DNA from: Centroscyllium fabricii
Lineage: Eukaryota
Direction: 5' to 3'
DNA length: 64,000 nt
Assembly (NCBI GenBank): GCA_051313645.2
Contig: JBNRSN020000009.1
Location: 25,730,001 to 25,794,000, forward strand
Below the pieces are notes generated by a model that worked only from the letters and a program-made list of their open reading frames with translations, was not told the DNA's origin and searched no databases. Positions 43,052 through 64,000 of the stretch are shown here, piece after piece (within the stretch, counting starts at the first letter, position 1; each line of letters begins with the position of its first letter). A program made the position numbers and the translations under genes.

Positions 43052-43275
43052 AATGTGGAGGTGCCGGTGTTGGACTGGGGTGGACAAATGCAAAAAGTCA
43101 CACACCACCAGGTTTATAGTCCAACGTTTTATTTTAAATCACAAGCTTTCGGAGCGCTGCTCCTTCCTCAGGTGACAGACAGAAGAGACCTGAGGAAGGA
43201 GCAGCGCTCCGAAAGCTTGTGATTTAAAATAAAACGTTGGACTATAAACCTGGTGTTGTGTGACTTTTTGCATTT
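43052..43275. mobile_element. Penelope-like hairpin inserted in CR1
   Basis: About 105-bp inverted arms, each with a hammerhead core. Confidence 0.72.
43139..43175 (-). ncRNA. Minimal type I hammerhead ribozyme motif
   Basis: Exact reverse complement of the 37-nt motif at 5198-5234. Confidence 0.6.
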
Positions 43276-43854
43276 GCTGCAGTTGTACAGGGCCTTGGTG
43301 AGACCACATCTTCAATATTTTGTGCAGTTTTGGTCACCTTATCTAAGGAAGGATGTTCTTGCCATGGAAGGAGTTCAGCAAAGATTCACACAAGGCTAAT
43401 ACCTGGGATGGCAGGAATGACGTATGAGGAGAGATTGGGTCAATTGGGCTTATATTCGCTGGAGTTTAGAAGAATGAGGCGATCTCATTGAAACTAACAG
43501 GACTGGACAGACTAGATGCAGGAAGGATGTTCCCTGTGGCCGGGGAGTCCAGAACCAGGGGTCACAGTCTAAGGATAAGGGGTAAGCCATTTAGGACAGA
43601 GATGAGGAAGAATTTCTTCACCCAGAGAGTGGTGAACCTGTGGAATTCTCTACCACAGAAGGCAGTTGAGGCCAATTCATTAAAAATATTTAAGAAGGAT
43701 TTCGATATAGTTCTTAAGGCTAGGGATCGAGGGATATGGGGAGAAGGCAGGGACAGGGTACTGAGTTTGGATGATCAGCCATGATCTCACTGAATGGTGG
43801 AGCAGGCTCGAGGGGCCGAATGGCCGACTCCTGCTCCAATCTTCTATATTAACC

Positions 43855-45503: not shown

Positions 45504-45734
45504 CACGTCGCCTCGCGCGGCTGCTGTGCCGCACGCCTACTTTGACGGCATCACGTTGCCGTACGTCGAGACGACCACGTGCTCATGGGACAACATTCAA
45601 AAGGGGAGGGGAGAAGATGGAAGGGATTGGGGGACAATGCAAGGGATTGGGGGAACAATGCAAAGGATTGGGGGACAATGCAAAGGATTGGGGGACAATG
45701 TAAGGGATTGGGGGACAATGTAAGGGATTGGGGG

Positions 45735-47748
45735 TGATACCGAATCAATGACCTCGGAGAGGAGATGTAACGAGGTGAAACAAAAGGCTTTTATTAGCTA
45801 AAAGGTTGAGCATGCACCAGCTAGTCGACCGCTCCCAGAATGAATGGGGGAAGGGAGACAGTCGCTTATGTACCTGTCCTGGGAGGAGGAGTCACAGGCG
45901 GGGCTAGCATAGGCATGCCCAGGTAAGCAATATACAGTTACACACATATATATATACACAAAGTGGTTTACCACATTCACCCCTTGTTTAAAACAAAGTC
46001 CGGCGGGTCGAATGCGACGCAGTTCTTAGAGGTCAAGCCTGTCGGGCGACGGGCTTGCAGTCCGGGGTGAGGTTGGCAAAGAGCGAGGGGGGGGCGACCT
46101 TAAGGGTCGAGAGGCCGCAGGTAGCGCGCTGTAGGTACTGCGGTGAGTGCTGGTTTCTGACCGTGAGCGGGGGAAGGGGCCCAACGTACGCCATGGTAAC
46201 GCTCTGGAGGTGGCACTGAAAGTCGAGGCCCAGCAGTAAGGGAGCGCAGAGTTGCGGCAGCACGAATACTTTAAAATTACTGAAGTGTACGCCCCGCACT
46301 GTCAGGGTCACTACGCAGCGACCGCAGACATCCGCAGATTCGGACTTAGACGCCATCGATATTTTTTGGCTAGCCGGCATGACTTTAAGGGAGAAGCGCT
46401 TTACCGTATCTGGATGGATGAAGCTCGCCGTGCTCCCGCTGTCAAAAAGGCAATCCGCACTCCGCCCGTTCACCTGCACCGTCATCATAGATCTGCTCAG
46501 TGACTGGCTCTTGTTCTGGTCGAGTGTGATGGAGGCCAGAAACGGGTCGGTTGAGAGGTCTGGGGCCTCGTCCCAAGATGGCTGCCGCCACGCGGCGTGC
46601 TGTGATGGAGATGGCTGTGTCCAAGATGGCGTCTGCTCCCACGCAACGGGCTGTGGTGAAGATGGCTGTGTCCAAGATGGCTGCCCCCACGCGGCGCTGC
46701 CCGGTTTGGAGGGCGGTATTGCCGCTGCTCTGCAGACTTTAGCAAAATGTCCTTTATTACCGCATCTCTCGCCGGGCAGTTTCGTCTTTGATGTTGGGCC
46801 TGGCCGCAGAAGTAACATTTAGGCCCTCTTGAGTGCGTAGCCGCAGTCATCTCTTCCGCCGGTCGCGGCGCGGCCGGCTGTGTCCAAGATGGCGGCGCCG
46901 GCGATGGGGCCGCGTGGTTGCCCAAGTAAGACGACAAGTTAAGGGACGCCAAGTCCAGCGCGTTCCCCAGGTCAGCTGCCGCCTGCAGGTCCATACCATA
47001 CCATTTTGTTCCAAAAGTCTTTGGCGGTTGTAATCGGACCTGAGGCCAGTCACATAAGCGTCCCTGATGAGACTTGCCGAGTGCACCTGGGCTGTCTGTG
47101 ACTTACAGTTGCAGGCCCGGCAGAGGACTCTCAGCGCTCGTAGGAACTCCACGCTCGATTCCCCGGGTTGCTGCTTTCTGGTGGCCAGGAGGTGTCTGGC
47201 GTGGACGAGGTTCGGTGTCCGGTTGTACTCAGCTTTCAGAATCCGGATCGCATCTAAGTAGGACGACGCATCCGCGATCATCGAGTAGACTTAGGGGCCC
47301 ACCCGGGTGTTGAGAAGGCACTTGTCCTCCGTCCGGACGACCGCCGCGTTGGCTAGGAGGAACGCGTCGAAACAGCTGAACCAGTGCGTAAAAGTATTGG
47401 AGGCGCCTGGTGTTTGGGGATCCAGTCCGAACGTTGCTGGTTTTAGCATGGACTCCATGGTTATAATTTAGCTAATAAAATTGATACCGAATCAATGACC
47501 TCGGAGACGAGATGTAACGAGGTGAAACAAAAGGCTTTTATTAGCTAAAAGGTTGGGCATGCACCAGCTAGTCGACCGCTCCCAGAATGAATGGGGGAAG
47601 GGAGACAGTCGCTTATGTACCTGTCCTGGGAGGAGGAGTCACAGGCGGGGCTAGCATGGGCATGCCCAGGTAAGCAATATACAAAGAACCATATACATTA
47701 TCACAGGCCGTTGGTTACACACATATATATACAAAGTGGTTTACCACA
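45735..47748 (-). mobile_element. Internally deleted Gypsy LTR retrotransposon (gag and protease only)
   Basis: Two similar LTRs, TGATAC...ACCACA, at 45735-45975 and 47482-47748. Apparent TSD TGGGGG. Polypurine tract on the minus strand next to 45976. Confidence 0.92.
46033..47458 (-). pseudogene. Gypsy gag-protease pseudogene
   Basis: ATG at 47458; ARHLLATRKQQPGES gag motif; zinc knuckles CYFCG...H...C and CGNKGHFAKVC; aspartic protease LFDSGS. Contains a premature stop and frameshifts and ends before RT. Confidence 0.85.
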
Positions 47749-48522
47749 TGGGGGACAATGTAAGGGATTGGGGAACAATGTAAGGGATTGGAGAACAATG
47801 CAAGGGATTGGGGGACAATGCAAAGGATTGGGGGACAATGTAAGGGATTGGGGACAATGTAAGGGATTGGGGGACAATGCAAAGGATTGGGGGACAATGT
47901 AAGGGATTGGGGACAATGTAAGGGATTGGGGAACAATGTAAGGGATTGGGGAACAATGCAAGGGATTGGGGGAACAATGCAGGAGACTGGGGAACAATGC
48001 AAGGGATTGGGGAACAATGCAAGGGATTGGGGAACAATGCAAGAGATTGGGGAACAATGTAAGGGATTGGGGGACAATGCAAGGGATTGGGGAACAATGC
48101 AAGGGATTGCGGGACAATGCAAGGGATTGGGGAACAATGCAAGGGATTGCAGAACAATGTAAGGGATTGGGGAACAATGCAAGGGATTGGGGGACAATGG
48201 AAGCAATTGGGCGACAATGTGAGGGATTGGGGAACAATGCAAGTGATTGGGGAACAATGCAAGGGATTGGGCGACAATGTAAGAGATTGGGGGACAATGC
48301 AAGGGATTGTGGGACAATGTAAGGGATTGGGGGACAATGTAAGGGATTGGGGGACAATGTAAGAGATTGGGGAACAATGCAAGGGATTGGGGAACAATGT
48401 AAGATATTGGGGAACAATGCAAGGGATTGGGGCACAATGCAAGGGGTCTGGGGGAACAATGCAAGGGATTGGGGAACAATGCAAGGGATTGGGGGAACAA
48501 TGCAAGAGATTGGGGAACAATG

Positions 48523-62400: not shown

Positions 62401-64000
62401 AGGGATTGGGGAACAATGCAGGAGATTGGGGAACAATGCAGGAGATTGGGGAACAATGCAAGAGATTGGAGAACAATGCAAGGGATTGGGGAACAATACA
62501 GGAGATTGGGGAACAATGCAAGGGATTGGGGGAACAATGCAAGGGGTTGGGGACAAAGCAAGGGATTGGGGAACAATGCAGGAGATTGGGGAACAATGCA
62601 GGAGATTGGGGAACAATGCAAGGGATTGGGGAACAATGCAAGGGATTAGGGAACAATGCAAGGGATTGGGGAACAATGCAAGGGATTGGGGAACAATGCA
62701 AGAGATTGGGGAACAATGCATGAGATTGGGGAACAATGCTGGAGATTTGGGAACAATGCAAGGGATTGGGGAACAATGCAAGAGATTGGGGAACAATGCA
62801 GGAGATTGGGGAACAATGCAGGAGATTGGGGAACAATGCAGGAGATTTGGGAACAATGCAAGTGATTGGGGAATAATGCAAGGGATTGGGGAACAATGCA
62901 GGAGATTGGGGAACAATGCAAGAGATTGGGGAACAATGTAAGGGATTGGTGAACAATGCAAGGGATTGGGGAACAATGCAAGGAATTGGGGGAACAATGC
63001 AAGAGATTGGGAACAATGCAAGGGATTGGGGAACAATGTAACAGATTGGGGAACAATGTATGAGATTGGGGGAGCAATGCAAGGGATTGGGGAACAATGC
63101 AAGTGATTGGTGAACAATGCAAGGGATTAGGGAACAATGCAAGAGATTGGAGAACAATGCAAGGGATTGGGGAACAATGCAAGGGATTGGGGGAAAATGC
63201 AGGAGATTGGGGAACAATGCAGGAGATTGGGGATCAATGCAAGAGATTGGAGAACAATGCAAGGGATTGGGGAACAATGCAGGAGATTGGGGAAAAATGC
63301 AAGGGATTGGTGAACAATGCAAGGGATTGGGGACAAAGCAAGGGATTGGGGAACCATGCAGGAGATTTGGGAACAATGCAGGAGATTGGGGAACAATGCA
63401 AGGGATTGGGGAACAATGCAAGAGATTGGGGAACAATGCAAGGGATTGGGGAACAATGCAAGCGATTGGTGAACAATGCAAGGAATTGGGGAACAATGCA
63501 AGTGATTGGGGAACAATGCAGGAGTTTGGGAAACAATGCAGGCGATTGGGGAACAATGCAGGAGATTGGGGGAACAATGCAAGGGATTGGGAACAATGCA
63601 AGGGATTGGGGAACAATGTAACAGATTGGGGAACAATGTATGAGATTGGGGGAGCAATGCAAGGGATTGGGGAACAATGCAAGTGATTGGTGAACAATGC
63701 AAGGGATTAGGGAACAATGCAAGAGATTGGAGAACAATGCAAGGGATTGGGGAACAATGCAAGGGATTGGGGAACAATGCAGGAGATTGGGGAACAATGC
63801 AGGAGATTGGGGATCAATGCAAGAGATTGGAGAACAATGCAAGGGATTGGGGAACAATGCAGGAGATTGGGGAAAAATGCAAGGGATTGGTGAACAATGC
63901 AAGGGATTGGGGGACAAAGCAGGCGATTGGGGGAACAATGCAGGCGATTGGGGAACAATGCAAGTGATTGGGGAACAATGCAAGCGATTGGGGAACAATG

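Follow-up and report, generated by a model that had tools for sequence, protein, structure and literature searches.

Probable self-priming in a Gypsy lineage of the Centroscyllium fabricii genome through a helix between the LTR and the primer-binding site

The element copy at the locus

We analysed a stretch of 64,000 nucleotides of Centroscyllium fabricii DNA (hereafter the window), which contains a 2.0-kb retrotransposon copy on its minus strand. The copy sits within a 20-bp satellite (strand not assigned) that occupies 47749–48522 and resumes at 45617–45734. Its 5' LTR (TG...CA; 267 nt) lies at 47482–47748 and its 3' LTR (241 nt) at 45735–45975, and the two share 235 identities in 241 aligned columns. 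A polypurine tract at 45976–45989 adjoins the 3' LTR. Between the LTRs there is a gag gene with a CCHC zinc knuckle and a protease remnant (46033–47458), both broken up by a stop codon and frame changes. Compared with a natural full-length sibling, ~2.4 kb have been lost at an internal deletion junction (46045–46048), and RT, RNase H and integrase are missing. The motif CCCCCA flanks the copy on both sides, whereas the family otherwise makes 5-bp target duplications.

The window element is a dead, internally deleted copy of an abundant 4.5-kb Gypsy family with a single open reading frame. The host genome contains 1901 exact matches to the normal LTR–PBS junction (PBS, primer-binding site) of this family. 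Most siblings are ~4.5 kb long with one gag-pol frame, and a 5-bp target duplication flanks 50 of the 64 sibling copies that have both LTRs. The usual hallmarks of Ty3/Gypsy elements are present (i.e. the order gag-PR-RT-RNase H-IN, TG...CA LTRs, a polypurine tract and a short target duplication).

Other features of the window concern its repeats and composition. The 20-bp satellite can be traced to 55 kb, with SINE-like insertions recurring at ~48.7, 51.7 and 53.3 kb, and both GC and AT skew are strong from 47749 through to the window end at 64000. An 89-nt inverted repeat, 99% complementary and with 14 nt between its halves, lies within CR1-like sequence at 43085–43276.

The helix between LTR and primer-binding site

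On the minus strand, the 5' LTR terminates with ...TCA at 47482 and is followed by a single A (47481) and not by TGG. The next 14 nt, TTTTATTAGCTAAA (47480–47467), form the PBS, which is the exact reverse complement of an arm inside the LTR, TTTAGCTAATAAAA (47549–47536). The arm recurs in the 3' LTR at 45802–45789. This agrees with a preliminary description of the locus, as does the length of the loop (47481–47535; 55 nt), which comprises the rest of R, U5 and the one-base spacer. The gag ATG was also correctly placed close behind the PBS; it starts at 47458, so that 8 nt lie between, and the distance of 9 nt given previously counts to the A.

The LTR has no other canonical poly(A) signal than the AATAAA hexamer (47542–47537) inside the arm, and the sense strand of the 5' LTR contains no further match to AATAAA, ATTAAA, AGTAAA or TATAAA. 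Upstream, a predicted TATA-like box, TACATAAG (47612–47619), lies 31 nt before an initiator-like TCATTC, and the same spacing recurs in two other families of the host genome. From this prediction and from the pile-up of fold-back ends described below, we infer that transcription starts at 47588–47589, which would be the capped 5' end of the RNA. The arm (47536–47549) would then cover +40 to +53 of the predicted RNA, and its 3' end would be the end that primes.

The helix is longer than expected by chance. Twenty dinucleotide-shuffled versions of the surrounding 236 nt have a longest helix of 6.2 bp on average and 9 bp at most. Folding energy gives z = -2.2, with 3 of 200 shuffles equally stable. 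An Rfam search returned a single match at chance level (E 0.16).

Relatives and placement of the lineage

The best relative with a solved structure is Ty3 Pol. A chromodomain is absent from the six natural frames of two siblings and from the Pfam annotation of the 120 homologues listed. The closest named proteins come from rays and a catshark (72–81% identity), while further relatives at 54–65% identity include many in metagenome assemblies and one in a cnidarian (a sea anemone). The lineage therefore appears to reach beyond vertebrates, and the preliminary proposal of tRNA-independent priming in a vertebrate Gypsy lineage, of which the self-priming part is well supported by the covariation reported below, was too narrow in host range. 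No relatives were found in viral contigs. Ten contigs binned in bacterial metagenome-assembled genomes (L161–L170) also carry the lineage, probably through host contamination. The RT active-site motif is YLDN in the family (P0001), and YxDN and YxDD alternate among its relatives.

In a quick RT–RNase H tree of 60 rows, the lineage falls into one clade with a support of 100, apart from the sushi-, Mag- and Gmr1-type elements of the host genome, to which it shows 27–30% identity; the tree carries a long-branch warning and represents the sushi type by one row (L220). Gmr1 is the type to which we presume the host-genome elements so labelled to belong. Identity in RT–RNase H is ~30% to the sushi-type element and 27–29% to the Mag-type elements, which form a separate clade. 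Inspection by eye shows that the lineage and the Mag type both have one extra residue behind the DY motif. The sushi and Mag labels, including that of L220, derive from by-eye comparison of motifs with supplement 3 of PMC2871265.

Two further host-genome loci deserve mention. In a sushi-type element (L296), two adjacent copies of the integrase region of the self-priming lineage, on the opposite strand, break the sequence after RNase H/integrase. At L305:7180–7430, a short palindrome seems to take the place of TGG behind the candidate 5' LTR boundary of a Mag-type element.

Covariation of arm and primer-binding site

We then compared the LTR–PBS region across families. From 90 loci outside the host genome, 52 without a gag start and three with too little upstream DNA were dropped before counting, and an exact helix of 11–18 bp is present in 24 of the remaining 35 (metagenome and genome contigs). 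Together with 45 host-genome loci of other families and the window, these 35 make 81 loci, which we grouped into 25 families. The best copy has a helix of at least 11 bp in 18 of the 25 families, though its letters change, and shuffled sequences give mean helices of 6.2–7.8 bp. An exact 11-bp helix is missing in the other seven families at the gag match that was scored, and in one of the 18 (L157) the helix lies away from the position one base after the terminal CA. LTR pairs place the PBS arm directly after the LTR end at 11 outside loci and at three host-genome loci of other families.

To follow individual base pairs, we used 20 representatives that were selected for having the helix. At positions 1–13, 257 of 260 cells are Watson–Crick pairs, one is G-U and two are other combinations, and most positions from 4 on show several pair types. 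Helices between the arm and PBS of the same family average 13.95 bp compared with 4.9 bp for cross-family combinations, none of which (0/380) reaches 12 bp. Because the representatives were selected, the weight lies on this cross-family contrast and on the lack of G-U pairs and not on the pairing rate. The arm ends with AAA in 19 of the 20 representatives, and RCC then follows in 17. Conservation of the complementarity among relatives, which the preliminary description had named as a test of its proposal, is thus found in the form of pairing that covaries across families.

Within the window family, the spacer A between LTR end and PBS is present in 166 of 167 rows. After 15 rows without an arm (mostly false reverse-strand matches) had been set aside, 152 copies remained; 120 of these have a perfect helix, every difference is one-sided, and compensatory variants of arm and PBS are absent among them. 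In 58 copies, variants common to both LTRs number 0 in the arm and 50 in 165 other sites, which is no more than suggestive because the copies are related. In one host-genome family (L201–L215), the gap between PBS and gag start is ~87–94 nt, compared with 2–32 nt in most others.

These observations bear on whether a host tRNA, a tRNA half or another small RNA could be the primer and the match to the LTR incidental. The PBS varies among families in step with the LTR arm, TGG is lacking, and the longest match of the PBS to 52 sampled tRNA-Lys and tRNA-Cys genes is 5 nt. The comparison with tRNAs that the preliminary description had proposed thus gave no match, for these two tRNA types; their number leaves such a primer some room, but we regard it as hardly credible. 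Self-priming independent of tRNA is well supported by these sequence comparisons.

Fold-back siblings and the predicted transcription start

If plus-strand synthesis continued beyond the 14 paired bases into an RNA primer that was still attached, the product should carry the LTR end and PBS followed by inverted LTR sequence from upstream of the arm; a query was designed accordingly. The host genome contains 112 exact junctions of this kind, and the reversed control gives 0. We examined the end of the inverted part in 70 of these fold-back siblings. Before this test, the start had been predicted to lie at 47588, at a distance of 39 nt upstream from the arm.

Most inverted parts (41/70) end at LTR positions 157–168, at or just short of the predicted start, including 28 at positions 160–162 (window 47589–47587), and the next 20 nt upstream of this cluster hold one end. 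Ten fold-backs stop early, and 19 run past the start site (three end in U3, 15 at the LTR start and one in the internal region). Among the 54 fold-backs with a complete 5' LTR, there are 52 distinct flanks. At a polymorphic site (47584), the copied segment matches the allele of its own LTR in 41 of 44 copies. In addition, C follows the inverted part in place of the genomic A in 10 of the 11 fold-backs that end at 47589 (p = 5e-5 at p(C) = 0.3), as would be expected if RT had copied the cap. This sign is only supportive, because the alignment to the joined partner starts at or before that C in seven of the 10 ends and two of the C-followed ends have one junction in common.

The simplest reading of the fold-backs is likely that of a capped primer of 53–54 nt derived from the same source RNA. 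The arm would thus lie downstream of the start, a position that the preliminary description had singled out as informative. In a second host-genome family, one of 10 fold-backs ends at the predicted start (then C), so the start-site footprint rests on one family.

Alternatively, priming might come from the copy of the arm in the 3' R, or from the arm of another RNA molecule, and the 5' end of the template would then need no cut. Fold-backs that run through U3 into the internal 3' region would be expected from such priming, and they make up one of 70 in the window family and three of 10 in the second family, where seven of 10 reach the LTR start and the three among them continue for 160–480 nt into the internal 3' region. 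A few fold-backs (L421, L415 and L477) also have a sense part that begins at the start site. By contrast, the 41 of 70 that stop at the start site, frequently followed by an extra C, require a 5' end there. The own-LTR allele of the copied segment speaks against an RNA of another subfamily, but not against a second RNA from the same source. The counts are against this alternative in the window family and partly for it in the second; overall we consider it improbable. The long fold-backs of the window family fit plus-strand DNA folding back onto itself or use of the 3' arm, and those of the second family are likewise compatible with use of the 3' arm or a fold-back at the DNA level.

Three host-genome loci (L427, L448 and L467) are tiny palindromic insertions that consist of LTR, PBS and inverted LTR back to the LTR start. 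Each is flanked by a 5-bp duplication, which suggests that products with two U3 ends can be integrated.

Proposed priming mechanism

Taken as a whole, we think that the family probably primes reverse transcription with the capped first 53–54 nt of its own RNA and not with a tRNA. The steps might be as follows: (i) the RNA would start at 47588–47589; (ii) bases +40 to +53 would pair with the PBS; (iii) the RNA would be cut just after the arm (...AAA|RCC), with the RNase H of the element assumed as the cutter by analogy with Tf1; (iv) from the 3' end so released, RT would copy the spacer and U5, the loop (47481–47535) being the presumed template of minus-strand strong-stop DNA; (v) this short DNA would jump to the 3' R by way of the only part of R that lies between the cut and the poly(A) site; and (vi) plus-strand synthesis would later copy the RNA primer while it is still attached, and thereby restore the PBS. 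Rebuilding of the PBS by primer copying could explain why the pairing stays almost purely Watson–Crick. Copying that ran on to the cap, with the product then joined elsewhere, would yield a fold-back sibling. The poly(A) signal may lie at the 3' end of the primer mainly since the poly(A) site must fall slightly downstream of the cut, where homology is needed for the jump.

Extra duplexes beside the primer helix, as in Tf1, are mostly not above chance in the 20 representatives: stems of 2–6 bp after the arm reach P <= 0.05 in five of 20, and stems closing on the LTR end in one of 19.

A different source of capped primers can also be envisaged. If the 5' poly(A) signal were used on purpose, short capped transcripts trimmed to the end of the duplex might act as primers in trans. 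These too would start at +1, as the fold-backs show, and their use would account for the hexamer at the end of the arm. But a canonical hexamer is missing from the arm in six of the 20 representatives, and the fixed RCC after the arm (17/20) better suits a cut site than trimming, which makes such primers very unlikely.

Possible masking of the poly(A) signal

The preliminary description had further proposed a dual role, whereby the AAUAAA of the 5' LTR would be concealed by the same helix and premature polyadenylation thereby prevented. Such a role is compatible with self-priming. The sole canonical signal of the LTR lies in the helix, and the predicted unpaired probability of the signal is 0.01 once the PBS has been made compared with 0.48 in the context of the 3' LTR, so the fold itself would mask the signal as proposed. 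AATAAA or ATTAAA is present in the arm of 14 of the 20 representatives, including all five from the host genome. A precedent exists in HIV-1, where a poly(A) hairpin masks AAUAAA near the 5' end.

Several observations weaken this proposal. (i) Transcription must reach +122, 70 nt beyond the hexamer, before the helix can form, and until then the predicted exposure is 0.34, about as in the 3' LTR. (ii) Six of the 20 representatives carry GTTAAA, GGTAAA, TTTAAA or AATTAA in the arm; in two of these six, a canonical hexamer lies in the loop and thus not in the helix, and a second hexamer occurs there in one further family. (iii) The signal lies 47 nt from the cap, and poly(A) signals close to the cap are poorly used anyway. 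(iv) A purely structural hairpin should tolerate G-U pairs, but only one of 260 cells has one. A pattern search for retroposed, poly(A)-tailed LTR ends gave 0 matches, and contigs from three sequencing runs yielded nothing on where transcripts start or end. A simpler reason for the overlap of hexamer and arm is the need, noted above, for a poly(A) site just downstream of the cut. We therefore see masking as a possible but doubtful second role of the helix.

Novelty and implications

In our literature search, which extended to sources other than subscription journals and Repbase notes (where such elements may be catalogued), no paper was found on self-priming in an animal Gypsy element that is not a chromovirus. 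The name 'Smag' denotes a self-priming group, and the same search found no paper under it. The accessible parts of PMC3601003, PMC10886601, PMC6238403, PMC8556966, PMC2836005, PMC6934838, PMC12440569 and PMC2871265 hold no account of the primer of this lineage, and a term search of PMC2774666 and of the supplements of PMC2642776 returned nothing.

The most far-reaching interpretation would be that self-priming arose independently of Tf1/sushi in a large Gypsy lineage spread across animals; that the primer of this lineage is a long capped 5' fragment whose 3' end carries the poly(A) signal, a single helix thus serving both to define the primer and to spare the 5' LTR from polyadenylation; and that failed products record the start and the cap in the genome. 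In this complete form, we offer the interpretation tentatively and rate it as rather unlikely. The added value would lie in the genomic footprint of the capped 5' end of the primer.

Self-priming in a second lineage of animal elements, one that is abundant and has a different geometry, would mean that the mechanism arose or persisted more widely. Silencing by tRNA fragments directed against the PBS would presumably not reach such elements. Fold-back siblings would allow the primer 5' end and the start site to be read out from DNA alone, and the fold-back test is applicable to any predicted self-primer (e.g. those of the sushi and plant lineages). Should the link to the poly(A) signal be real, it would offer a compact way for a short LTR to keep its own transcript from ending early.

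Comparison with known systems

To our knowledge, experimental proof of self-priming exists only for fission-yeast Tf1, whose self-primer is 11 nt long, and the mechanism is regarded as characteristic of Tf1/sushi chromoviruses. As in the poly(A) hairpin of HIV-1, a helix close to the 5' end would sequester AAUAAA in the present lineage. In HIV-1, however, the hairpin is local and priming is by tRNA; in the present lineage, the strand that pairs with the hexamer belongs to the PBS, at a distance of 55 nt, and is available at the 5' end only.

Short LTRs and a single open reading frame of ~1200 codons fit what we take to be the features of Cigr-1, and the range in aquatic animals fits too; this comparison with Cigr-1 is by description. 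The Cigr-1 clade of Ty3/Gypsy is named in PMC6238403 and PMC8556966, in the accessible parts of which its primer is not mentioned, and neither a Cigr-1 reference sequence nor clade motifs were found in the paper supplements that we searched by motif.

In plants, self-priming of Tcn1 (Gypsy) and TAR (Copia) has been predicted from complementarity to the LTR, according to the accessible part of PMC6317226. The rule stated there calls for at least 10 bp complementary to the LTR, starting 0–5 nt after it, and the window element conforms to this rule as given in that part. Tcn1 and TAR belong to lineages unrelated to the present one. Since self-priming in TAR arose outside the chromoviruses before, its occurrence in the present lineage is less surprising.

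As described in the accessible parts of PMC4600332, PMC5341516, 10.1101/2022.12.06.519325 and PMC6317226, Tf1/Tf2, Tj1, Tosmo and Tf1/sushi chromoviruses, including vertebrate members, are self-priming, and the self-primer of Tf1 begins at the RNA 5' end. The present lineage resembles the Tf1/sushi group in having no tRNA PBS, in the pairing of a segment of R with the bases that immediately follow the 5' LTR, and in the Ty3/Gypsy domain order. It differs from that group in lacking a chromodomain at the C-terminus of integrase and in the position of its RT in a clade of its own (support 100 in the quick tree). Compared with Tf1, whose self-primer runs from +1, the arm here lies 39–40 nt after the inferred start, so that the primer would be 53–54 nt long; the arm ends on the poly(A) hexamer; and most of the stems that a 'pretzel' of three duplexes would add are not above chance. 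The lineage thus appears to work like Tf1 and yet not to be a member of the Tf1/sushi group.
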